A stretch of 64,000 nucleotides of DNA from an uncultured Verrucomicrobiae bacterium (GTDB taxonomy: Bacteria; Verrucomicrobiota; Verrucomicrobiia; Chthoniobacterales; UBA10450): assembly GCA_963815455.1 (NCBI GenBank), contig CAWFGO010000002.1:32001-96000 (forward strand). The letters are read 5' to 3'. This document shows positions 30,197-48,310 of the stretch, in pieces. The notes under the pieces were generated by a model. It was not told where the DNA came from. It searched no databases and was given only the letters and a program-made list of their open reading frames with translations. Both the position numbers and the translations under genes were made by a program. The first letter of the stretch is position 1; each line of letters begins with the position of its first letter.

Positions 30197-33100
30197 TTAA
30201 GCCACATTCTCCAGGAAAGCGCTCGGCGCCTGGCTGCCGACTTTTACGTCGAGGCCAAGGCTCTGCATTTCCTTGATTAACACGTTGAAAGATTCGGGTG
30301 TGCCCGCTTCGAGCGAGTTGTCGCCCTTGACGATGGATTCGTAAATCCGCGTGCGTCCCTGCACGTCGTCGGATTTCACCGTGAGCAATTCCTGCAAGGT
30401 GTAAGCCGCGCCGTAGGCTTCCATTGCCCAGACTTCCATTTCGCCGAAGCGCTGCCCGCCGTATTGGGCTTTACCGCCCAGCGGCTGCTGCGTCACCAGC
30501 GAGTAAGGCCCGACCGCTCGCGCATGGATCTTGTCGGCCACCAAGTGGCCAAGCTTCATCATATAAATGTAGCCAACCACGACCTCCTGATCGAAGGCAT
30601 CTCCCGTGCGACCATCGAACAACCGCGCTTTGCCGGTCTCCTGCACCCAGGCGAACCCTTCTTTCTTGCGCGCTTCCTTGAGATAGCTGCGGATTTTCTC
30701 CTCCTTGATGCCGTCGAAAACCGGCGTCGCGACCTTGAATCCCAGCGCCTTGGCGGCAACGCCAAGGTGCGTCTCGAGAACCTGACCGACGTTCATTCGG
30801 CTCGGCACGCCCAGAGGATTAAGCACGATTTCCACCGGCGTCCCGTCCGCCAGGAACGGCATGTCTTCTTCAGGAACAATGCGCGCCACCACGCCTTTGT
30901 TCCCGTGCCGTCCGGCCATCTTGTCGCCCACACTCAATTTGCGTTTGCTGGCGATGTAAACCTTGACCTGCTTGATGATGCCAGGATCGATATCATCCCC
31001 GCTCTCCACCCGGTCCATTGCTCGTTCCCGCTCCAGTTCGAGCTCGGCGAACTTGTGTTCGTAGGAAGCGATGATTTCCCGTATCTTATTTCGAATCGGG
31101 CTCGGATCGATCTCGATGTGATCGTAAACATTGGCCAGTTTGCGCAACAGCGTTTTGGTGATTTTGCGATTGGCCGGGATGATGATCTCGCCCGTCTCGG
31201 CGTTGACCACGTCGAGCGGAATTTTTTCGCCCAACAAAATATTTGAAAGCGCGTCGGTCAGTTGCTCAGTCAGCTCCTCTTTCTTGCGCTTGTTTTCTTC
31301 CGCGATCGACTTGAGCTGCCGTTTGGTCTCTGTGGGCGTAAGTTTTTCCCGAGCGACTTCGCGACGCGAGGAAACCTTCACATCCATCACGATGCCGTAG
31401 GTCCCGGACGGAACCGTCAGGGATGTGTCTTTCACGTCAGCTGCTTTTTCGCCGAAAATCGCGCGAAGCAGGCGCTCTTCCGGCGCCAGTTCGGTCTCGC
31501 TCTTAGGCGTAATTTTGCCCACGAGAATGTCGCCCGGCTTAACTTCTGCGCCGACCCGCACCACTCCGTCCGATCCGAGATTGCGCAAAGCTTCTTCACT
31601 GACGTTGGGAATGTCGCGCGTGATTTCTTCCGGACCGAGCTTGGTATCTCGGGCGCCGATCTCGAACTCGTCGATGTGAATCGAGGTGTAAATGTCCTCT
31701 TTCACGACCTTTTCCGAGATCATGATCGCGTCCTCGAAGTTGTAACCGTTCCACGGCATGAAGGCCACGAGCACGTTGCGGCCGAGGGCGAGCTCGCCCT
31801 GATCGGTATTCGGGCCGTCAGCGATGACCTGCCCCTTCTTCACATGCTGGCCTTTGTGCACAATCGGTTTTTGATTGATGCAGGTGCCGGCATTCGAACG
31901 CATGAACTTCCGCAGTTCGTAAACGTGAATTCCTTCTTCAAGATCCGTCTTTAGTTTCCGCTTCCCTTCGGGCATATGCCCATCCTTGGTCACCACGATC
32001 TGATCCGCCGTGACGGACGCGACCTTGCCGCTCTCGGTTGAGAGAAGAACGGCGTGCGAATCGCGCGCTACCTTCGCCTCCAGACCGGTGCCGACCAACG
32101 GCGCTTCGGAAACAATCAACGGCACGCCCTGGCGCTGCATGTTGGAACCCATGAGCGCGCGATTGGCATCATCGTGCTCCAGGAACGGAACCAGCCCCGC
32201 CGCCACCGAAACCAGCTGCTTGGGCGAAACATCCATGTAATGGACCTTCGACGGCTCGACTTCCAAAAAGTCGCCGCGGTAACGGACCGAAACTTTTTCG
32301 CCGGTGAAATGTCGGCGCCCGTCAATCGGCGCATTGGCCTGGGCAACGAGATAATTTTCTTCGCGATCGCCAGTGAGATAATCGATCTCGTCGGTGACCC
32401 GGCCGTTGTGCACCTTCTGGTACGGCGTCTCGATAAATCCAAATTCGTTGATCCGCGCGAAAGTCGACATCGAGCTGATCAGACCGATGTTCGGACCTTC
32501 CGGCGTCTCGATCGGACAAATCCGTCCGTAATGCGACGGATGAACGTCGCGCACTTCGAATCCGGCGCGATCCCGGCTTAGACCGCCAGGCCCGAGCGCC
32601 GACAAACGTCGTTTATGGGTCAACTCCGCCAGCGGATTGGTCTGGTCCATGAACTGCGACAACTGCGAGCGGCCGAAGAAATCGCGAATCACCGCGCTCA
32701 GCGCTTTCGGGTTGATCAGCTTTTGCGGCGTCATCCCGTCCACGTTGATGTCGAACAATGTCATGCGCTCTTTCACCAGGCGCTCGGTCCGAGCCAGGCC
32801 CACCCGGCATTGATTGGCCAGCAATTCGCCCACGGTGCGCACGCGACGGCTTCCCAAATGATCGATATCGTCCAAAGTGCCTTCGCCCCGGCGCAGATTG
32901 ACCAAATATTTGATCGCACCGATGAAATCCTTGTCGGTCAAAATCCGCTCGCCAAGATCGACATCGATGCTGAGTTTCTGATTGATCTTGTAGCGACCGA
33001 CCCGGCCCAAATCGTATTTTTTCGAATCGAAAAAGAGCCGTTTGAGCAAGGCCCTCGCATTCGCCACCGTGGGCGGATCGCCAGGACGCAGCTTGCGATA

Positions 33101-36440: not shown

Positions 36441-36565
36441 AACCACGAATTAACACCAATAAACACGAATCAGGGAGGATCGCTGTAGCTTCGGCTGTCC
36501 CCGGCCTCTACAGCCGTTCCCGCCGTCCCTCCGCCCGATTCGTGCCTATTCGTGCAATTCGTGTC
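36441..36565. repeat. Inverted pair of 9-mer arrays enclosing a TGTAG...CTACA palindrome
   Basis: aaccacgaattaacaccaataaacacgaat ... attcgtgcctattcgtgcaattcgtgtc. Confidence 0.65.
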
Positions 36566-36620
36566 TCAACCTCGTTTTTGCCTTGCAAAATTTCCCATGA
36601 TCCTGGTAAAAACAGTGATT

Positions 36621-37493
36621 ATGAAACGCCCCACCGTTTATAAACTGTCGATCCTCGCCGTTATCCTGTTTGGCTTGGCCAATCTAACCTCCGCCCGCCC
36701 GATCGAGTTCAGTGAGCTTTCGCTCCTGGTTCGCGCCCGCGAGAGCGAGAACTCAATCAAGAACGACGTTGCCGAGCGCAAATTGATGCATGCGCTGACG
36801 CCGCAACAGGAGAGCAAATTGAAAGCCGAAGGGGCAAGCGATTCGCTGATAAATTCTTTGCGTAATCCAAACCAGATCGTGTCGAAAGATGAAGCGGCTG
36901 CCTTCGAGAGCGCAAGCGCGCAAAAAGCGAAAGCCGCTCCGGCAGGCAGCGTAGGATCGACAACTGGCCGCGCCGAGCAGGGAAAATTATACGTTTTCGA
37001 TGTCGCGCTGGGGCATCCAATCAATCTCAGCCAATGGGGTGGCTATGATTACGAGCTGGCGTTCTATTCCTACCGTTGCGCCGGTGAAGACATTGTCGAG
37101 CCGGTTCTCATCGATCCGGTTCGGACAATCTCTGTGGTCAGCCGAGTTATTCCTACCCAGGGTTCGAGCGAGGATGAAACGTTCGCGGACAATGGTTTCA
37201 CTCGCGATTGGTATCGCCGTCAGCGTTTCATGGCCACCGATAATGATGGCCACCGATTCACGCCCTACGATGCCCGGCGCGATTTGAAGGACGATCGCTT
37301 CAACTTCAGCGACACCGTCGCGGCGAGTTCGTACTCGGCTTCCCGTCCATTAGCCATCGATTGGAGCAGTCCGGTCACAATTGAAGGCGTCCCTTATGCG
37401 CTGTATCCCGTTTACGGCGCCGGCGGTGTCTCGCTTTACTACATCGGCGGTTCGAGCACTTCGGTTAGGCTGGCAGTCAGCACCAACCGATAG
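36621..37493 (+). CDS. Exported hypothetical protein
   Basis: Signal peptide; long ORF. Confidence 0.7.
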   Translation: MKRPTVYKLSILAVILFGLANLTSARPIEFSELSLLVRARESENSIKNDVAERKLMHALTPQQESKLKAEGASDSLINSLRNPNQIVSKDEAAAFESASAQKAKAAPAGSVGSTTGRAEQGKLYVFDVALGHPINLSQWGGYDYELAFYSYRCAGEDIVEPVLIDPVRTISVVSRVIPTQGSSEDETFADNGFTRDWYRRQRFMATDNDGHRFTPYDARRDLKDDRFNFSDTVAASSYSASRPLAIDWSSPVTIEGVPYALYPVYGAGGVSLYYIGGSSTSVRLAVSTNR

Positions 37494-39056: not shown

Positions 39057-40046
39057 TCAATCCCTCGTCAGTGGCCCCATTTTCACCACTTCCAAGTCGC
39101 TCCCTTTCACACGCTTGATCGCGCCCAAGGCCTCGTCGTCCCAGCGATCGTCGGGCGCGCCCGAGATGAACCAGTCGCCGCCGTTGTCGGCCAGGATCAT
39201 GCCGTAGATTTTAAGACAACGCAGAATCACCTGCGCGGCTTCGGGAAATTTGGAGATGTCGTAATCCGCCTTCAATCGCACCCGTAATCCCATCGGCGGC
39301 AGCGATGAGTCTTTGCTTTCGCTGGCATAATGCGATGCGGGCGGCACGTAGGCTCGCTGCGTTTTCTGCACCGTGAATCGCAGCGCGTGGCGAATCTCTT
39401 TTTGCTCCATCACTTCGTCGTAGCGCGCCAGGCCGGGGAAAATCGGCAGACCAGCGGCATCGGCGCTGGTCCAACCGGCCGGACGCGACTTATTGCTCTT
39501 CAAATCGAAAACCGCGCCCGCACCGGCGCGCCACGCCTTACCGTCGGGAGAAGCCGAAAAGATTTCGTAAAGCTTTTCGTTGTCGCGGTCGAGCACCAGA
39601 ACATGGCGGTCGCCATCGGCGTCGGCCTTCGGGCCGCCTTCGATCGGCGCATCAGGCGGAATCGGGTATGGGCCGGGATCGCTTTCGTCGGCGTATTCAA
39701 AAGTGAGCGAGACTTTCGGCTGCGTGCCCGCGACGACGACATACGGAATACCGAGCGGCGCGCCCTCATAAGGCGCCCCGAAATCCGGGTGCAGCGGTTT
39801 GTCGGCGCCGATGCTTTTGATGAACGCCGACGATTTGGCGTCCACCGGCAATTTATCAACCGGCGTGTTCCACGGATTATCGTCGGGAAACGGGCGATAG
39901 CCGCGCAAACTCGTGTTGGGACCGAGATGGCGTTGTTCCTTGGCGGGCGATCCCGCAACCAAAACATCATCGCCGCAGACCGAAGCCAACAACAATCCAG
40001 CAAGGCCCAGTGACAGAATCCGATAATTAGCGTTCGAGGCAGGCAT
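39057..40046 (-). CDS. Conserved secreted hypothetical protein
   Basis: Signal peptide; PFPDDNPWN, GDRHVLVLD, GWTSADAAGLPIFPGL. Confidence 0.75.
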   Translation of the reverse strand: MPASNANYRILSLGLAGLLLASVCGDDVLVAGSPAKEQRHLGPNTSLRGYRPFPDDNPWNTPVDKLPVDAKSSAFIKSIGADKPLHPDFGAPYEGAPLGIPYVVVAGTQPKVSLTFEYADESDPGPYPIPPDAPIEGGPKADADGDRHVLVLDRDNEKLYEIFSASPDGKAWRAGAGAVFDLKSNKSRPAGWTSADAAGLPIFPGLARYDEVMEQKEIRHALRFTVQKTQRAYVPPASHYASESKDSSLPPMGLRVRLKADYDISKFPEAAQVILRCLKIYGMILADNGGDWFISGAPDDRWDDEALGAIKRVKGSDLEVVKMGPLTRD

Positions 40047-40052
40047 GGGAAC

Positions 40053-40904
40053 TTATTGTCTGGATATCACAACCGCCTTGGCCAGTTGCTCGCCCGCATC
40101 AGTCAAAAAAAAGAGATAGTTTTTGCCTCGCTCCACCGTCACACGGCGCGTCCCTTTCCCGTCCTCAGCCACGCGCTTTTCTTCCCCCTGCGAGCCCTCC
40201 TTCATCCAGACTTTTGCATCCGGATGGTCCGGCCCGCCGTCCCAAGTCAGCGTGACCGTACCCTCAGATTGCCCATCGGGAATGTTAACGACTGTGGGAT
40301 GGGCCGAGATGGTAGGAGAAGCCGTCGAAGACTGCGTTTTCGGCATTTTGCCGCTGCTCTTAATAGGCGGTGTGGCGGTAGGCGGTTCAACAGGCGCCGC
40401 ATCCGCGCACTCCATGTGCGTTTCGCTGTACCAATTTACCTTTATCGAAGGCGTTGCTTGGTTGTAACCGGTGCCCTCAATCCTGCCGGAAGGCCCGATC
40501 GTGCCGTTATAAACGCCAGTGGTGTTGTTGTTCCAATGAATGATCACGTCGAAGTGATCGTCTTTCATGGTGCCGTCGACAGTGCCGCGGACGTTCGCTT
40601 TGCCTTCGATGCCGGGGCCGCCATCTTTTGGTGTCACATCTATTCTATGATTTGCCTTCCCCGTAATCACAGTTCCGTTCTGGTCCAGCTCGAGGTCCAC
40701 ATTGGTTGAGCCTTGTTTAAACCGCCACCCGTGGCCGACGTTCCATTGAGAACACTGAGCTTCCACGGGCGGAGCCGAAAACGCGAAAATGGATGTGAAC
40801 AAAAATCCACCAAGCGCTAGAGCAAACCACCTGCGACGGATTAGTGCCTTGTCGCCGCTTTGGATCACCGGCGGTGACAGAATTGAATGATGTTTTGTTT
40901 TCAT
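40053..40904 (-). CDS. Array unit 1: secreted protein, module A + PIKSSGKMPK linker + module B
   Basis: MKTKHHSILSPP...WFALALGG..AQCSQW...MECAD; PTVVNIPDGQ..GT.TLTWDGG.DHP. Confidence 0.8.
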   Translation of the reverse strand: MKTKHHSILSPPVIQSGDKALIRRRWFALALGGFLFTSIFAFSAPPVEAQCSQWNVGHGWRFKQGSTNVDLELDQNGTVITGKANHRIDVTPKDGGPGIEGKANVRGTVDGTMKDDHFDVIIHWNNNTTGVYNGTIGPSGRIEGTGYNQATPSIKVNWYSETHMECADAAPVEPPTATPPIKSSGKMPKTQSSTASPTISAHPTVVNIPDGQSEGTVTLTWDGGPDHPDAKVWMKEGSQGEEKRVAEDGKGTRRVTVERGKNYLFFLTDAGEQLAKAVVISRQ

Positions 40905-40950
40905 ATGGTTTGGGTTCTGAAACGTTTTCGTCGATCTAATCGTTGCCTTG
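40893..40950 (-). repeat. Array junction repeat J1 (31-bp spacer)
   Basis: CAAGGCAACGAT TAG ATCGACGAAAACGTTTCAGAACCCAAACCAT ATGAAAACAAAA. Confidence 0.85.
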
Positions 40951-41978
40951 GTTCTCATCATCGTCGTGATGATGACGGTTCTTATGCTTTTTAGGCTGGT
41001 CTTCCGTGTCGCTCGATGAAGATTCGTCCGCTTCTGGATGCCGGAGCCTAGACCCTCGGGGCCCTTGGGCCGACGAGTTCTCCGCTCTGACAGTAACAGA
41101 GGCCAGGCGCTCCTCGGAGTCGGTCAGAGTAAAGGTATTTTCCCCTGGCTTTATCGGCACCAATTGTGAACCTTTGCTTCTCAGCGGAGCGACGGACTCG
41201 TCGTCGTTGTTTACCTTAATCCTCACTTGGGCGTTCGGGTGGCCGCTTCCTGCATCCCAAGTCAGACGAGTGGATCCGCTGTTTTGCCCGTCGGGAATGT
41301 TAACGACTGTGGGATTGGCCGAGATGGTAGGAGAAGCCGTCGAAGACTGCGTTTTCGGCATTTTGCCGCTGCTCTTAATTGGCGGCGTGGGCTTCGGCAT
41401 CTTGCCGCTGGACTTAATCGGTGTGGCGGTAGGCGGTCCAACAGGCGCCGCAGCCGCGCAATCAAAATGGTGTCGAGGTAAACCATTTTACGGTTTATCG
41501 AACGGCATTCTTGGTTGTAAGCCGTTCCCTGGATGCCGGAAGCTGCCTCGACCTATTGCGCCGTTATAAACGCCAGTGGTGTTGTTAGCCCAATTAATAT
41601 TACGTTGAAACTGTCGCCTTCACGGTGCCGTTGACTCGACCCTGAACGTACGCTTTTTCGCCGAACATCGCCCTTCCCGTAGTCTAGGTATTCCAAATTA
41701 TATTATGGGTCGCAGTCCATTGACTATTTTGCCATTCTGGTGCAGAGTTCGAATCGAAATGATTGCGCCTTTACCCGAGCCTTGTTTGGACCGCCACCTG
41801 GCCGACATCTATTGCTGACAACTGGCTTCCGCGGAAGAAGCCAACAGCGCGAAAATGGATGTGAACAAGAATCCACCAAGCCCGAGGGCAAACCACCTGG
41901 GACAGATCGAATTGTTTCGATTTTGGTCGCCGCTTTGGGTCACCGGCGCTGACAGAATTAATGATGTTTTGTTTTCAT
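40936..41978 (-). pseudogene. Array unit 2 (A + linker x2 + B + QGND tail), multiple frameshifts
   Basis: Close paralog of unit 1 with single-base deletions in the 5' half; 3' ORF 40936..41400 is intact. Confidence 0.75.
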
Positions 41979-42040
41979 ATGTTTTGGGTTCTGAGATTTT
42001 TTCTCGACTCAAGATGTCGATCTAATCGTTACCCCTGGTC
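41967..42040 (-). repeat. Array junction repeat J2 (43-bp spacer)
   Basis: AACGAT TAG ATCGACATCTTGAGTCGAGAAAAAATCTCAGAACCCAAAACAT ATGAAAACAAAA. Confidence 0.9.
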
Positions 42041-42579
42041 CTGATCGTCGTGGTCGTGCTGATGGGTCTTTTCCACTGGGATGCGGCCGCCGAAGGGTCG
42101 TCCCCGCAGGACATTCTCTTGCTGCCGACCCAGTTTACCCCTTGGGAGGTAGTACCCTCGATTTTGCCACCAGGGCCGACGCTACCCGTAAAGCGGTATT
42201 GCGTCGTACCTATCGTGAGTTACAGAGTGAAGGAATTTATCTGTGATGTTTCCACTTATTATACCGTCCTGTGCTTGTTCGAGGCAGGCGGCAATATGAG
42301 TGCCGTTCCAGTAAGATTCGCGCTCGTCTGTCCCCAGTTCGCCCTGCTGCAGGTTGACGGACACATTCATCCCATTGCCATTTGAATACCCAGTTGTCCG
42401 CTGACATTCCAACGCTTGCACTGCGCTTGCGCTGGAGAAGGCAATAAGGCGCAGACTGAGATGAACAAGATTCCGGGAAGTCCCAATGCAAATAACCTGC
42501 GAGGGACAGTATTGTTTAGGGTTTTGCCGCCGCTGTACCCTGACCGCGCTGACATGATTGACTGAATTTTTGTTTTCAT
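42022..42579 (-). pseudogene. Array unit 3 (A + tail), frameshifted paralog of unit 6
   Basis: MKTKIQS...ISVCALLPSPAQAQCKRWNVSGQ; WVGSKRMSCGD; HQHDHDDQDQG(N)D. Confidence 0.75.
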
Positions 42580-42640
42580 ATGTTTTAGTTCTGAGAGGTT
42601 TCTTCGGCTCAAAGATGTCGATCTAATCGTTGCCCTGGTC
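42568..42640 (-). repeat. Array junction repeat J3 (43-bp spacer)
   Basis: CAGGGCAACGAT TAG ATCGACATCTTTGAGCCGAAGAAACCTCTCAGAACTAAAACAT ATGAAAACAAAA. Confidence 0.9.
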
Positions 42641-43555
42641 CTGATTGTCGTCGTCGTGATGATGATGGTGCTTTCTCTTATTCTTCTTGTGCTTTCCGTG
42701 CTGGTCGTCCTCCGTATCGTTTGATGAAGATTCGTCCGCTTCTGCACTCGGGGCTGGCTTGGAAGGGCTAGGCGCTGGAGTGTGCATTTGAATGAAGCCG
42801 CCCGCTGTTCCGCTGCCAGACACTGGGGTAGTAGCCGGCTTGGGTGTCGGTTTGGGCACTTGAACCCCGTTAGGCACTGTCTGCCCGCTAACGTAGTCCT
42901 CTATTTTGCCGCTGGATTTAGGAAGACTGCCCGGCTTAAAAAAGCTCTCACTCTCGCACGTGACGGTTCTGCTGGCCAGCTCCTTGCCCGCGTAGTACTT
43001 TTTGCCGTCAACTTCAGTTACGACAACAGCGGCGGCGTTGGCACTGCGTCGACTGTGGTTTCCGCCGCCCGCGTCACTCACCTCCCTCAGAACAAAGCGA
43101 TAGCTCTCGCCCCGCCCGACCCGAAACTTACACCCCTTCGGAAAGTCTAGTATCGACGGCGGAAAGATTTTTTGGGGCCCGCCGTTCAAACTAAAATACA
43201 GCGCGACGTGGGGGTGTTTCTCTCCACCCCTCCAGTAGATCGTGGTCGTGCCCTTAGTTTGCCCACCGGGAATGGTAACGATGGGAGGACACATCAGGAC
43301 GAACGGAGGCTCAAACGGGCAATCGCGGACTTCGACCGGGCATCCCTCATCGTTGGCGTCGGGACTTGAGCCCGCGACGGTGACTGGAGGCAACGGGGCG
43401 CAAAGTGCGGCGAACAAGACGCATCCTTTTCCTGCAATCGAGAAGATTGCCGGCCAATAACTAGTTGTTTTCATATAATCGGTTCGCTGCTTCGCGTTTT
43501 TGTCGCCGCTTTGGGTCACCGGCGCTGATAGAATTGGGTGATGTTTTGTTTTCAT
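42623..43555 (-). CDS. Array unit 4: module B + Pro-rich linker + tail
   Basis: MKTKHHPILSAPVTQSGDK; PPIVTIPGGQTKGTTTIYW.GGEKHP; ADESSSNDTEDDQHGKHKKNKRKHHHHHDDDNQDQGND. Confidence 0.8.
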   Translation of the reverse strand: MKTKHHPILSAPVTQSGDKNAKQRTDYMKTTSYWPAIFSIAGKGCVLFAALCAPLPPVTVAGSSPDANDEGCPVEVRDCPFEPPFVLMCPPIVTIPGGQTKGTTTIYWRGGEKHPHVALYFSLNGGPQKIFPPSILDFPKGCKFRVGRGESYRFVLREVSDAGGGNHSRRSANAAAVVVTEVDGKKYYAGKELASRTVTCESESFFKPGSLPKSSGKIEDYVSGQTVPNGVQVPKPTPKPATTPVSGSGTAGGFIQMHTPAPSPSKPAPSAEADESSSNDTEDDQHGKHKKNKRKHHHHHDDDNQDQGND

Positions 43556-43612
43556 TGTTTTGGGTTCTGAGATTTTTCCCAGATTCAAGATGTCGATCTA
43601 ATCGTTGCCGCT
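43544..43612 (-). repeat. Array junction repeat J4 (42-bp spacer)
   Basis: GGCAACGAT TAG ATCGACATCTTGAATCTGGGAAAAATCTCAGAACCCAAAACA ATGAAAACAAAA. Confidence 0.9.
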
Positions 43613-43680
43613 ATCATCATCGTTGTCGTAATGGTGAATGGGTGTTTTTCTTGTGCTTTGCCGCTGCCGGTTGCTTCGGC

Positions 43681-44208
43681 CTAGTCACGGCACTCCATCA
43701 AATCCGTGGTGGACCAGCGTACCTTCTTGTTAGGGCTTCTCTTTTCGTAACCCATGCCGCCTGTGATCTGCCCTCGTTTTTTGCCTTCACGTTGAATCTC
43801 GAATCGAGGCCTGATCGTTGCGTCATAAACGCCCGTAAGCCCATTACTCCAAGAAATCTCGAAATGGATTTTATCTGCCGAAACCCAACCCGCGACTTTA
43901 CCCTCACCTGCTGTGCTCCTCCAATCCGCGGTCAGATACTGTGCGGTCCCTGTAAAGCGGCCCCCCTGGAAAGATAATGACAACTGATTCCGTTGTACTT
44001 GGTTATCCTGCGTAAACTCAAAATAAGAGATGGACCATCCTTTGGGGCACTGGCCTTTCACTGGAGAAGATAAAAACAGGATAACTAAAAGTAAGGCACT
44101 AAGACCCACGACGGGACGCACTCGACGAATCGGACGAGTGCTTTCGATTGCCTGGCTAGAAGTTTTGGCTCCAGATGCTGGCAGAATTGAATGATGTTTT
44201 GTTTTCAT
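43681..44208 (-). CDS. Array unit 5: module A; vestigial out-of-frame tail at 43598..43680
   Basis: MKTKHHSIL...QCPKGW...TGVYDATI...LMECRD*; downstream DNA still reads KHKKN / HHYDNDDDSGND*. Confidence 0.8.
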   Translation of the reverse strand: MKTKHHSILPASGAKTSSQAIESTRPIRRVRPVVGLSALLLVILFLSSPVKGQCPKGWSISYFEFTQDNQVQRNQLSLSFQGGRFTGTAQYLTADWRSTAGEGKVAGWVSADKIHFEISWSNGLTGVYDATIRPRFEIQREGKKRGQITGGMGYEKRSPNKKVRWSTTDLMECRD

Positions 44209-44265
44209 TGTTTTGGGTTCTGAGATTTTTCTCGGCTTGAAGATGTCGATCTAATCGTTGCCCTG
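44197..44265 (-). repeat. Array junction repeat J5 (42-bp spacer)
   Basis: CAGGGCAACGAT TAG ATCGACATCTTCAAGCCGAGAAAAATCTCAGAACCCAAAACA ATGAAAACAAAA. Confidence 0.9.
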
Positions 44266-44850
44266 CTCCTGATCGTCGTCGTGATGATGATGCTTTTTCT
44301 TATTCTTTTTGTGCTTTTTGTGCCAATCCTGCGTGTCGTTGGATGAAGATTCGGACATTGAGCTAGCGCCGGTTTTTTGCGGATTTGCATCCGCGCACTT
44401 CATGCTCCTGCTGCTGACCCAGTACACTCCGCTGGCGTCCCTGGCGCCGATATAACCTTCGATTATGCCACTAGCGCCGATGGTGCCCGTATAGCGGCGT
44501 GGAAGCCCATCTACGGTGTATGCCATCGTGAAGGCATTGCCGGAGATGTTTCCACTTATTGCATGGCCGGCCGTCGTCCCCGTAAGATTCGCACTCGCCC
44601 CTTCCCATTTACCCTGCCGCAGGTTGAGTGAAGAAATTCCCCCATTGCTCGTCCGCATTTCCCATTGTCCGCTGACATCCCAACGCTTGCACTGCGCTTG
44701 CGCTGGAGAAGGCAATAAGGCGCAGACTGAGATGAGCAAGATTCCGAAAAGTCCCAGGGCAAATGACCTGCCAGGGACGGTATTGTTTAGTTTTTGGTCA
44801 ACGCCTTTGGCATCCGCCGCTGATAGAGTTGAATTGTATTTTGTTTTCAT
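44251..44850 (-). CDS. Array unit 6 (first transcribed): module A + tail
   Basis: MKTKYNS...SPAQAQCKRW...MKCAD...SESSSNDTQDWHKKHKKNKKKHHHHDDDQEQGND. Confidence 0.8.
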   Translation of the reverse strand: MKTKYNSTLSAADAKGVDQKLNNTVPGRSFALGLFGILLISVCALLPSPAQAQCKRWDVSGQWEMRTSNGGISSLNLRQGKWEGASANLTGTTAGHAISGNISGNAFTMAYTVDGLPRRYTGTIGASGIIEGYIGARDASGVYWVSSRSMKCADANPQKTGASSMSESSSNDTQDWHKKHKKNKKKHHHHDDDQEQGND

Positions 44851-45004
44851 ATGCTTTGGGTTTTGAAACGGAATTGTCTTTAACCGTCAACGCGCAGGCC
44901 GGTGGCAAATCACGCCATTTTTTTTGTTACTTTTTCCGCAACCGGTGTGTCATGATCGGGCCGCAGGCGCGGTAATCTGGATTTTCGCGCGCGAAATTAT
45001 CCCG

Positions 45005-45631
45005 GTGAAATCATCTGCCCTCGATTCTGGAGCCTCCGAACAGGAGGGCGAAACGGCAACGCCAAACAAAGGCGAGGTGACGCGATGGCTGATCGCCGGC
45101 AGCGCGGGCGATGCTCACGCGCTCGAGTCTTTGCTCCCGCTGGTCTATGAAGAGCTGCATCGCCAGGCCGTCAGCTTCTTTCGCCGGGAACGCGCGGGAC
45201 ACACGCTTCAACCGACGGCATTGGTGAACGAAGTTTATCTGCGCCTCATCAATCAGCACGAGGTGAGCTGGCAGAATCGCGCGCAATTTTTCGGGATCGC
45301 CGCGCAAATGATGCGGCGCATCCTGGTAAGTCACGCCCGCGGCCGGGATGCGAAAAAGCGGGGTGGCGCAGGCCAGCAGATTACCTTGCAGGAGGAAATG
45401 GCGGCCGCGCCCGAACGCGACCTGAATCTGCTCGCCCTCGACGATGCGCTGACCAGGCTGGAGACGGTTGATCCGGACAAAAGTCGAATGGTGGAGCTGC
45501 GTTTCTTTAGCGGATTGTCGGTGGAAGAGACGGCGGAAGTAATGGGAGTTTCGTCGCGGACGATTGACCGGCAATGGCAAACGGCAAAAGCATGGCTGCA
45601 CCGGGAAATGAGCGCGGGAAAAGCGGCGTGA
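45005..45631 (+). CDS. ECF sigma-70 factor, kinase-associated (TIGR02999 / ECF43-like)
   Basis: LVYEELHRQA, HTLQPTALVNEVYLRL, WQNRAQFFGIAAQMMRRILV, ELRFFSGLS..E; start codon uncertain. Confidence 0.88.
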   Translation: MKSSALDSGASEQEGETATPNKGEVTRWLIAGSAGDAHALESLLPLVYEELHRQAVSFFRRERAGHTLQPTALVNEVYLRLINQHEVSWQNRAQFFGIAAQMMRRILVSHARGRDAKKRGGAGQQITLQEEMAAAPERDLNLLALDDALTRLETVDPDKSRMVELRFFSGLSVEETAEVMGVSSRTIDRQWQTAKAWLHREMSAGKAA

Positions 45632-48310
45632 CCTCAGAGAAGTGGAAGCAAGTCGAGGCGCTCTTCGAGCAGGCACTTGAAGTTCCGACTGCCGAACGGC
45701 CTCAATTTTTGCAAAGGATCGGTGACGACGAACTGCGTCGCGAGGTCGAGTCACTGCTTCAGGCCCACAATCAAGCCGGCGCTTTTATCGACGAACCGGA
45801 TCACTTCATTTCAACTGAAAGTCTGGAAGAAAATGGCGGTAGCTTTTTGCCCGGCGAGATCATCGATCGCTATCGCATTATCCGCGAGGTCGGGCGCGGC
45901 GGAATGGGCGCGGTTTTTCTGGCCGAGCGCGCCGACGATCAATATCAGAAACAGGTTGCGATCAAGCTGATCAAGCGCGGCACGGATACCGATTCTGTGC
46001 TGCGCCATTTTCGCAACGAGCGGCAGATTCTCGCCGGCTTCGATCATGCCAACATTGCCCGGCTCTTTGATGGCGGTACGACTGAGAGTGGTCTGCCCTA
46101 TTTCGTGATGGAGTACATCGAGGGACTTCCGATCGACGAGTACCTGCAACACACACGCGCTCTCGGTCGTTGAACGGTTGAAGCTCTTCCGCGAAGTCTG
46201 CGCCGCTGTTTCCTACGCCCATCGTCATCTTGTTATTCATCGGGACATCAAACGCTCAAATATTCTGATCACGGCGGACGGCGTGTCCAAGCTGCTCGAC
46301 TTCGGGATTGCAAAAATCCTTCAGCAAGGGGACCAGCCGCTGGCGACGATGACGGGGATGCGGCTGATGACGCCCGAGTGCGCCAGCCCGGAGCAGGTGC
46401 GAGGTCAGCCGGTGACTACGGCGAGTGATGTCTATTCGTTAGGCCTGGTGCTGTATGAATTACTCTGCGGCCGGGCGCCTTATCGATTCCCCAGTCAGAC
46501 ACCGCACGAAATCGCGCGCGTGATTACCGAGACCGAGCCGAAGAAGCCGAGCACGGCCTTCGCTCGAAGCGATGGAAGTTCACAAATTCCAAATCCCAAA
46601 ATATTGCGGGGCGATCTCGACAACATCGTGCTGATGGCGTTGCGCAAGGAGCCGGAGCGGCGCTACCAATCAGTAGAGCAATTCTCCGAAGATATCCGGC
46701 GGCACCTGGAAGCGCGGCCCGTTCACGCGCGCAAAGACACTTTCGGCTATCGCTCCGCCAAATTCGTGCGACGAAACAAGGCCGCGCTCGCCGCGGCCGC
46801 GCTCGTATTTCTTGTTCTGGTCGGCGGCATAGTTGCGACGAGCCGGCAGGCTCATATTGCCACGCGGGAAAAGACTCGCGCGGAGCGGCGCTTCAACGAC
46901 GTGCGCAAGCTGGCCAACAGCGTCTTGTTCGATTACCACGATGCGATCAAGGACTTGCCCGGCGCGACCAAGGTGCGGGAGCGATTGGTCAAGGATGGTT
47001 TGACTTACCTCGACAGTCTGGCCGGCGAAGCGCACGGCGACCCTGCCTTGCAGCGCGAGCTCGCCGCCGCTTACGAGAAAGTCGGCGACGTGCGCGGAGG
47101 AGAATCGAGCGGCAGCCTTGGCGACCTAGCTGGGGCGCTGGAGAGTTACACGAAGTCGCTCAGGATTCGCGAAGCCCTGGTAGCTCTGAATCCCAATGAC
47201 GCGCAGGCACGGCGCGGCCTCGCCAGCAGCCACCAAAAAATTGGCTACCGGCTGCTCGACACCGGCGAGGCGAGCAATGGCTTGGAGCATCTTCGGAAAG
47301 CTCTAACGCTTTACCTCGACCTGACGCGGGAACAGCCTGCCAATGACGACCTTCAGCTCGAGTTCGTCGATACCTACGACAAGCTTGGGCAAGCGATGAA
47401 AGTGCAGGGTGATCTCGTCGGCGCGCTTAAACAATATCGCGCAGCCTCGGCCATCTGCGAAGGGCCTGCCGCCCGCCATCCGCAAGACCAAAAGTACCGT
47501 CGCGCACTCTGGACCACCTACGAGCACACGGCGGATGTGCTGTATTTACAAGAAGCAGGCGCTGAAGCCCTCGCCGCCAACAGCAAAGCGCTCGCGCTGG
47601 GAGAAGCGTTGATCGCGGACGACCCCATCAACGCCGATTACCGCCGCGGCCTGGTGCTGAACTATAAGCGTGGTGGCGACTATCGCAGATGGACCGACCC
47701 GCGTGGCGCACTGGAGTACTTCCGCAGGGCGGTAGCACTCGACGAGGAGTTGCTCACGGCGGACCCGGCTAATGCGTTAACCCGTAAGGATCTTGGATAC
47801 TTGCACAAGAGGATAGCCGACTTCCTGGGGAATCTGCACGACGACTCTCAAGCTCTCTTGCACTTCCGTAAGGCGCTGGAGGCTTATCAACAGGTGGTCA
47901 CAGACGCCCCCACAGACTTGATCTCGCGATTCCTGGTCGCCACTTGTCGCGGTGGCGTGGCTCAGAGCCAGGCACGGCTGGGCGAGGTTGATCCTGCGCT
48001 GCAAGAATGTGGCAAAGCGATTGCCCTCCTCGGAGAGATTACTGAAGACGCGACAAACGCTCGTCAGCGGTTGAATAGAGCTCAGGCGTATGAAAATCTT
48101 GGCTCTGCCTACCTCGACGTGGCCACGTCCCCGAAAGCATCGACCAGCGAGACCACTCAGCGCATGAGCGCTGCTCGCGACATGTATCGGGAAAGCCTGA
48201 ATGTCCTCGATGACTTGCGTAGTCGCGGCATCTTGAACGCGGCCGACGAGGTTTGGGCGAAGGACATCGCTGGCCAGCTCGCCAAATGCGACACGGCTTT
48301 AGGCAAATAA
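45628..48310 (+). CDS. Membrane Ser/Thr kinase with C-terminal TPR region; +1 frameshift at ~46144
   Basis: GTG overlaps the ECF stop; GRGGMG, VAIK, HRDIK, DFG, SPEQ, one TM helix, helical repeats. Removing one C restores EYCNTHALSVVERLKLF. Confidence 0.88.

Follow-up and report, generated by a model that had tools for sequence, protein, structure and literature searches.

What is it that multiplies and varies when neighbouring genes have closely similar boundaries and strongly diverged cores? The question is raised by an array of secreted-protein genes in a 64,000-nt stretch of DNA (the window) from an uncultured Verrucomicrobiae soil bacterium (UBA10450), positions 32,001 to 96,000 of contig CAWFGO010000002.1 of assembly GCA_963815455.1. 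An initial, sequence-only reading had taken the DNA junction between the genes, and not only the peptide, to be the recombining unit of an expandable repertoire. Our analysis makes it reasonably probable that the locus is a tandem secreted-protein array that is reshuffled by homologous recombination, passed from genus to genus as an island, driven by a kinase and a sigma factor, and used for defensive binding. Beyond what that reading had described, we found a predicted barrel fold shared by the cores, two broken units, and a sigma factor/kinase pair with a promoter-like motif.

The array lies on the minus strand, and we named its units U1 to U6 in the order of transcription (unit 5 of the sequence-only reading is U2). 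As had been reported, the start ATGAAAACAAAA, encoding MKTK, occurs six times (at 44850, 44208, 43555, 42579, 41978, and 40904), with five junctions in between. U1 (44251..44850) is intact and encodes 199 aa: a long leader/signal peptide, a barrel, and a Lys/His/Asp tail ending in GND. U2 (43681..44208, 175 aa) consists of leader and barrel and stops ahead of the tail; the junction is nevertheless retained 83 bp further on, as had been claimed, after an out-of-frame tail remnant (43598..43680) with the junction stop at its end. U3 (42623..43555, intact, 310 aa) has no barrel and carries the array leader, a second and different leader, an immunoglobulin (Ig)-like domain, linker modules, and a tail. 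U4 (42022..42579) is a broken paralogue of U1, and U5 (40936..41978) a broken paralogue of U6 that has its lesions in the 5′ half and in which the Ig-like domain and tail are still open. U6 (40053..40904, intact, 283 aa) comprises leader, 8-stranded barrel, Pro-rich linker, and Ig-like sandwich, without a tail. Spacers 1 (44209..44250) and 2 (43556..43597) measure 42 bp, spacers 3 (42580..42622) and 4 (41979..42021) 43 bp, and spacer 5 (40905..40935), which has an internal deletion, 31 bp; spacer 1 consists of a gene 3′ flank and a gene 5′ flank. Thus, the six-gene layout and the shared leader hold, while six intact genes and a shared tail do not, since U4 and U5 are broken and U6 lacks the tail; the intact open frames are the four of U1, U2, U3, and U6.

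Compared with intact homologues, U4 contains 5–6 frameshifts or stops and U5 7–9, most of them between 42380 and 41460 (~0.95 kb). Since the background is far lower, at ~2 frameshift sites per 53.5 kb of aligned coding DNA, one of them in the neighbouring kinase, general sequencing error was ruled out, and the lesions represent either real decay or a local consensus error. With two broken units, a split kinase, and an altered sigma factor start codon, this genome's copy of the system may be in decay.

The junction repeats are not due to chance, since the 15-mer AACGATTAGATCGAC occurs five times in the 3.6-Mb genome, every time inside the array. In a genome-wide profile search, the array copies scored 29–38 bits and the best other match 20. 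All five carry CGAT-TAG-ATCG at the stop, as had been seen. The four full-length spacers are 75–90% identical, compared to 39–45% nucleotide identity (28–34% amino-acid identity) for the intact barrel cores, values that an old duplication kept in fixed order does not fit. Each half of the junction also occurs alone: the 5′ half is found after the promoter, ahead of U1 and of two genes in G030, and the 3′ half closes the arrays of G030 and G035, with unrelated DNA after it and no gene behind (both are other genomes of the same taxonomic family). Thus, the junction consists of the end of one gene fused to the start of the next.

The cores are strongly diverged, as claimed, but they are not unrelated in the manner of spacers, since a barrel is common to U1, U2, U4, U5, and U6 (tblastn E values of 1e-11 to 1e-56) and an Ig-like domain to U3, U5, and U6. 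Profile searches recovered 139 barrel homologues, 120 of which are listed; a deep search gave 1984 clusters (50% identity) at E ≤ 0.001, of which 1053 also passed E ≤ 1e-10. In sequence searches of Pfam, NCBIfam, and the PDB, neither the units nor a neighbouring 329-aa gene fell into a named family. The profile and structure searches that had been proposed for the cores did reveal shared architecture. The predicted model of U6 (predicted local distance difference test score, pLDDT, 90.5) contains an 8-stranded antiparallel barrel and a beta-sandwich. The barrel matched designed barrels (Z 11.8, root-mean-square deviation 2.3 over 99 residues), a quinohemoprotein amine dehydrogenase domain (Z 11.1), and several avidins (Z 8.3–10.2); the sandwich had Ig/fibronectin type III-like matches up to Z 9.6. 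Foldseek with the two-domain model yielded only 2 matches at E ≤ 0.001, neither of which fitted well globally. From this model, we predict that the barrel is avidin-like. By sequence, only an atlas lead (score 0.85, 27% Avidin members) pointed to Avidin, and none of the 120 listed family members matched Pfam Avidin at E ≤ 0.05. Avidin and streptavidin, according to PMC8033661, are likewise secreted 8-stranded antiparallel barrels; the proteins described here differ in sharing 8–14% identity with avidins, in the varying length of the loop between strands 3 and 4, and in their Ig-like and tail fusions.

Within the family, nearly invariant cysteines mark either end of the barrel, and the strand 3–4 loop spans 8–37 residues in 88 of the 89 proteins, out of 120, that fit the pattern. 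Tachylectin, CAP, or AbfB domains are present in 3 of 25 homologues chosen for length or extra domains, fusions that hint at extracellular binding. Each intact unit has a hydrophobic stretch within its first 60 residues, from which we infer secretion. Among the genome's 20,744 C-termini, the tail profile matched strongly only U1, U3, and U5. Elsewhere, the tail also occurs on low-complexity, apparently unstructured secreted proteins within arrays (L041:547-1143 and L044, both on minus strands, and L016:12368-12832).

The three intact barrels were placed in three separate starred subfamilies of 106, and holding them as one clade was rejected (approximately unbiased test, p-AU 0.013, with long branches in play). 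On a barrel tree of the 81 of 120 proteins that bear either a tail or an Ig ending, the ending changes 19–20 times, at least 9–10 of these changes being forced by starred branches, and a single tail clade was rejected (p-AU 7e-48); the labels are still somewhat clustered (1–2 of 500 shuffles were as low). Leaders are at least 85% identical in 26 pairs, 7 of which have cores no more than 50% identical. Between U2 and P0061, identity is 96% in the leader and 48% in the core, with a sharp fall just past the predicted signal cleavage site. The pairs U1/U4 and U5/U6 share tracts identical at 69 of 70 nt, against 70–71% overall (p = 0.0005). U3 is a chimera in which the array leader stands ahead of a second leader that resembles that of a G153 gene. 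The leader is also grafted onto the unrelated family of the 329-aa gene: the barrel-family leader profile reaches 15 bits or more on 12 of the 28 nearest relatives of that gene and on none of 92 farther ones; the window's own 329-aa protein, at 10.5 bits, falls under that line. Finally, seven short linker motifs reappear in many combinations. Shuffling of leader, core, tail, and Ig parts is thus well supported.

The comparison of junctions and arrays across relatives that the sequence-only reading had proposed supports its idea of an expandable, reshuffled secreted repertoire. We surveyed 355 genomes of the taxonomic family, this one included. Junction DNA was present at length in 2 of the 354 others, G030 and G035, and ten more had only weak 24–40-nt matches. 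The barrel family was found in 5 of the 355, belonging to five different genera; G153 has 8 matches in two clusters, forming a larger array, and G191 has 2, and the tail-junction motif is absent from the arrays of both. A metagenome scan returned 9 loci, 7 of them in arrays (four arrays after merging overlaps) and 2 chance matches. The tandem layout with the same junction recurs in two further genomes and in four independent arrays from metagenomes; every other array seen had its own content and order, no two being alike in content. Named records with matches were Chthoniobacterales or Verrucomicrobiae metagenome-assembled genomes (L084-L086) and one distant actinobacterial match. A sample of the phylum gave 1 weak match among 401, besides this genome, and 0 of 102 pattern matches on viral contigs were confirmed.

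The array lies between rplA and rplK, genes that we take to be adjacent in Escherichia coli. G153 shows both flanks and G030 and G035 the rplA side, while the G191 array is located elsewhere. In G001, a genome of the same genus, the flanking amidohydrolase and CocE genes are directly side by side. Synonymous divergence (dS) to G030 and G035 was 1.30 and 1.14 for rpoB, 2.58 and 1.63 for the amidohydrolase, and 1.76 and 1.21 for CocE, compared to 0.50 and 0.36 for the 329-aa gene and 0.28 and 0.33 for the U6 barrel; for the sigma factor it was 0.66 to G030. Since island values (0.28–0.66) lie below flanking ones (1.14–2.58), recent transfer is indicated, and the island has likely passed between genera recently. 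The ratio of nonsynonymous to synonymous divergence (dN/dS) for the barrel was 0.47–0.91 over six pairs with U6 (0.51–0.77 without the loop), while controls gave 0.04–0.15. The barrel is under weak constraint or diversifying selection, the ratio not exceeding one overall.

The interval from rplA to rplK holds ~22 kb of accessory genes (36431-58612 of the window), and in G153 a number of sigma/kinase pairs and genes for secreted proteins occupy the corresponding interval, which thus has the appearance of an insertion hotspot. An unnamed secreted-looking gene of 313 codons (36552-37493) is kept next to rplA in G030, G035, and G153. In G001, a lone gene on the far side of CocE (L019:2913-4019) combines the Ig-like domain of the array with a different, unnamed domain.

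Next to the array, on the plus strand, are genes for an extracytoplasmic function (ECF) sigma factor (44924..45631) and a Ser/Thr kinase (45574..48310). The sigma factor matches Sigma70_ECF (PF07638; E 5e-57) and exceeds the cut-off of TIGR02999; it is ECF43-like, with a QPTA motif that places Ser/Thr where the acidic sigma-2.2 motif would be, as judged by motif match and not by alignment to EcfK. The kinase, at the +1 position, has one transmembrane helix and tetratricopeptide repeats (TPRs). It is whole in G030 and split here by one frameshift near 46140, and the sigma factor has ACG at the codon matching the ATG start in G030. The definition of ECF43 adds a promoter with GTC at −35 and CAG at −10, according to PMC7826278. 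The pair fits three of the four ECF43 features tested, and we describe it as working like ECF43 without filing it as a member. It resembles EcfK-PknS of Xanthomonas citri and EcfP-PknT of Vibrio, which, according to PMC13147305, PMC8999054, and PMC7826278, also combine Sigma70_ECF with a +1 kinase that has one transmembrane helix and TPRs. The same sources give the Thr motif as QTTA for the ECF43 consensus and QATE for EcfK. Unlike those pairs, this one belongs to a host outside Proteobacteria, its predicted targets are secreted proteins rather than a type VI secretion system, and its kinase is split.

The predicted target of the divergent sigma factor is a promoter-like motif, TGGCGYGA...GCGCGTT (44889..44917, minus strand), 38 bp ahead of U1. 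It occurs once in exact form in this genome and three times in G030 (ahead of two array genes and one RHS gene). The motif was found in 26 of the 355 genomes and its reversed control in 1. At 9 of 30 motif loci, this one included, a 76–100% identical sigma factor lies just upstream on the other strand (8 of 29 in other genomes, 76–93%), and the genes behind these sigma-linked sites mostly look secreted, as judged by eye. Some of the sites lacking a sigma factor are probably due to chance. This co-occurrence suggests that the sigma factor reads the motif. Across the family, the motif precedes varied secreted repeat or surface proteins (L089, L092, L093, L096, L102, L109, L110, L111, L113, L114, and L116), a candidate regulon. 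A 1635-aa RHS/YD-repeat gene in G030 (L016:4353-9260) lies directly behind the array with its own copy. Two further TIGR02999-like sigma/kinase pairs of this genome (G000; C2:109776 and C1:427363) lack the motif; opposite each pair, in divergent orientation, lies a large gene of secreted appearance that is broken up into several frames.

The 329-aa secreted partner (39057..40046, minus strand) belongs to a conserved, unnamed, widespread family of at least 8000 members. It accompanies the arrays of G030, G035, G153, and L045 and is under strong constraint (dN/dS 0.14–0.15). Its predicted model (pLDDT 92.9) gave no Foldseek match at E ≤ 0.001 and only weak structural matches (Z ≤ 4.3). Most of these are glycan proteins with a double-psi barrel, and MltA lytic transglycosylases account for 5 of the 10 best rows. 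An ADNG/ADTG motif, which we take to be like that of MltA/3D proteins, is present in 117 of 120 relatives. The 3D-domain profile did not match the protein at this locus. Catalysis by MltA/3D proteins depends on an Asp (PMC4499186), and in the 329-aa protein the Asp of ADNG is the candidate for this role. On these structural resemblances, the protein is possibly MltA-like, and its pairing with barrel inhibitors is offered as a lead.

A model that accommodates these data is as follows. The unit is a leader, a predicted avidin-like barrel and/or an Ig-like domain, and a charged tail. The junction would have arisen once, by fusion of a gene 3′ flank to a gene 5′ flank, and, with the adjoining tail and leader, would provide a crossover block of ~100–150 nt. 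Ordinary homologous recombination (recA is present in this genome) at tail-spacer-leader and linker blocks likely reshuffles and resizes the array, and transfer of the island from one genus to another is likely. In analogy with EcfK/PknS, the neighbouring kinase would activate the sigma factor by phosphorylation and so turn on array transcription. The products are probably a varied set of binders that act against foreign enzymes or toxins by neutralising them.

What the barrel itself binds is harder to judge. An inhibitor- or immunity-like role is a possibility that we entertain tentatively, a lectin- or adhesin-like role is almost as likely, and the remainder falls to other roles. MliC/PliC lysozyme inhibitors, whose barrels we assume to be similar, were not among the 50 structural matches listed for the U6 model. 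Among toxin candidates near arrays, the 329-aa protein is only weakly MltA-like, and G030 is the only genome in which an RHS gene has the promoter motif. A bolder version of the model, in which contact with a predator or competitor would act through the kinase to induce an MltA-like enzyme together with hypervariable, antibody-like barrels whose cores are swapped behind an unchanging leader and tail and exchanged among genera, the motif being a true recombination or processing signal, seems decidedly unlikely. A related sigma/kinase pair of X. citri responds to amoebae, according to PMC13147305.

The genetics that we propose are of a known type, although the sequence-only reading had recognised no described system with this layout. 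The streptococcal tipC and staphylococcal esaG immunity arrays, according to PMC9484751, are tandem, non-identical paralogues in which recombination through conserved blocks alters paralogue number and content, tipC having conserved 5′ (signal peptide) and 3′ blocks around a variable centre. The present array shows the same tandem paralogues, conserved end blocks, and variable centre. It differs in belonging to an unrelated protein family and phylum, in placing several unrelated core types in one frame, in its link to a sigma/kinase pair, and in having no proven cognate toxin. Staphylococcus aureus lpl clusters also have a cross-gene unit; there, according to PMC2568036, the crossover block is mid-gene and the cross-gene unit variable, while here the cross-gene block is the conserved one. 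We found no published account of the locus, the protein family, the grafting of a frame onto unrelated cores, or the promoter motif, although supplements outside our view may hold motifs. We regard the protein family as new; the genetics being known, the surprise is moderate.

Several observations count against parts of this model. The support for shuffling comes from comparisons among units, genera, and metagenome arrays rather than from strains or reads. The 69-of-70-nt tracts fall within coding sequence, where selection could equally have maintained them, and one gene of each pair is broken. Spacers are 0.72 alike within arrays and 0.68 between them (p = 0.08), homogenisation within arrays is weak (p = 0.55 for the last 24 nt of the tail and 0.012 for the first 30 nt of the leader), and whole leaders do not group by genome in a tree; concerted evolution of the spacers was rejected on the non-significant difference and the unclustered leaders. 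The 10 nt after the stop are ~0.9 conserved, a figure inflated by the choice of copies by motif, even where the TAG is not a working stop, against 0.65 for the next 10 nt, and this could mean a cis function beyond the favoured model. The promoter-like motif is unlike the published GTC/CAG promoter of ECF43, 21 of the 30 motif loci have no sigma factor within ~1.5 kb, and no sigma factor or kinase adjoins the G035 array. Ligand and function are argued from fold, fusions, and context, a shared fold by itself shows no function, and the best fold matches were to designed barrels and to a dehydrogenase domain.

The near-equal likeness of spacers within and between arrays is what would be seen if the array had grown by plain tandem duplication with selection on the peptides, leader and tail being retained for secretion and for hold at the surface, the cores diverging by point change and a young island keeping the spacers alike, with little recombination at junctions. 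The correlation of leader and core identity (r = 0.34) and the tendency of leaders to accompany their core subfamily also favour this explanation. We consider it unlikely because spacers of 75–90% identity separate cores of three subfamilies, and because it does not account for the double leader of U3, the leader on an unrelated family, or the nine or more tail/Ig swaps.

With reshuffling by homologous recombination still preferred, the motif could in addition be maintained for a regulatory role at the RNA or DNA level, in transcript processing, translational coupling, or repressor binding, and so outlive the frame. The post-stop conservation and a 4-bp inverted repeat that straddles the stop fit this idea; the ascertainment of copies by motif and the lack of the motif in G153 and G191 speak against it. 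RNA folding of the junctions gave z scores of 0.18 to −2.16, with only 1 of 5 copies below −2, and DNA folding of both strands gave −0.02 to −1.81, no copy being better than shuffles. The GAGA-A(n)-TCTC hairpins that had been proposed thus have no stability. The one Rfam match scored 17.9 bits where the cut-off is 58.7 and lies outside the array, and a structured RNA at the junction was rejected on these results. We also rejected the junction as an internal promoter, since spacing and −10 element are not kept and a sigma-70 scan found 1 site where 3.2 were expected. Overall, a regulatory element is improbable.

We regard as highly improbable a dedicated gene-cassette system, in which the stop-spanning motif is the site for a trans-acting recombinase or capture enzyme. 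In its favour, the motif survives where it is non-coding (in U2, at the ends of the G030 and G035 arrays, in L043, and in the shortened tail of L039), unrelated cores share one frame, and integron integrases are available in trans: the genome has 3 over the TIGR02249 cut-off, on C1 and C3. As in integron cassette arrays, short genes stand head to tail with a repeated boundary and a single upstream promoter. In integrons, an attC site (RYYYAAC...GTTRRRY, a bottom-strand hairpin) follows each cassette gene. A scan for attC-like sites found 0 in the array region (C2:70000-78000), four integrase loci giving 16, 18, 10, and 7 strand-hits in the same scan, and the nearest tyrosine-recombinase match on C2 is ~280 kb off; an attC/integron reading of the array was therefore ruled out. 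The earlier observation that no integrase adjoins the array is correct, and no recombinase lies beside any array examined. The cassette idea is further opposed by the unstable fold, the paralogous content, the larger G153 array built without the motif, and swap points inside genes. Since the halves also occur alone, the data do not support the junction as an autonomous unit like CRISPR (clustered regularly interspaced short palindromic repeats) or attC. The genome (90% complete) had 0 RVT_1 matches, which led us to reject diversification by reverse transcriptase (diversity-generating retroelement or retron). The four integron-like loci (C1:1708000-1720000, C1:1485000-1496200, C3:784700-792300, and C2:707900-712700) contain integrase genes, two of them split, and ~123-bp attC-like sites of one family, and are quite unlike the array. 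Mis-assembly of dispersed paralogues, the alternative that the sequence-only reading had raised, deserves almost no credence: lesions crowded into ~0.95 kb could come from a noisy mixed-strain consensus, but no second copy of any unit exists elsewhere in this genome, the layout and junction recur in other genomes and metagenomes, and a local consensus error, against so low a background of frameshifts, could explain the lesions and not the array.

Together, these results assign a predicted fold to a large unnamed family (the 1053 clusters), describe the modular grammar of its members, and place it in a genetic context; for kinase-coupled sigma factors beyond Proteobacteria, they propose a promoter motif together with a set of targets. 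The barrel, whose loop varies widely in length and which is under little purifying selection, is of interest as a naturally occurring scaffold for binders. If the immunity reading is true, the array would show how little-studied soil Verrucomicrobia defend themselves.

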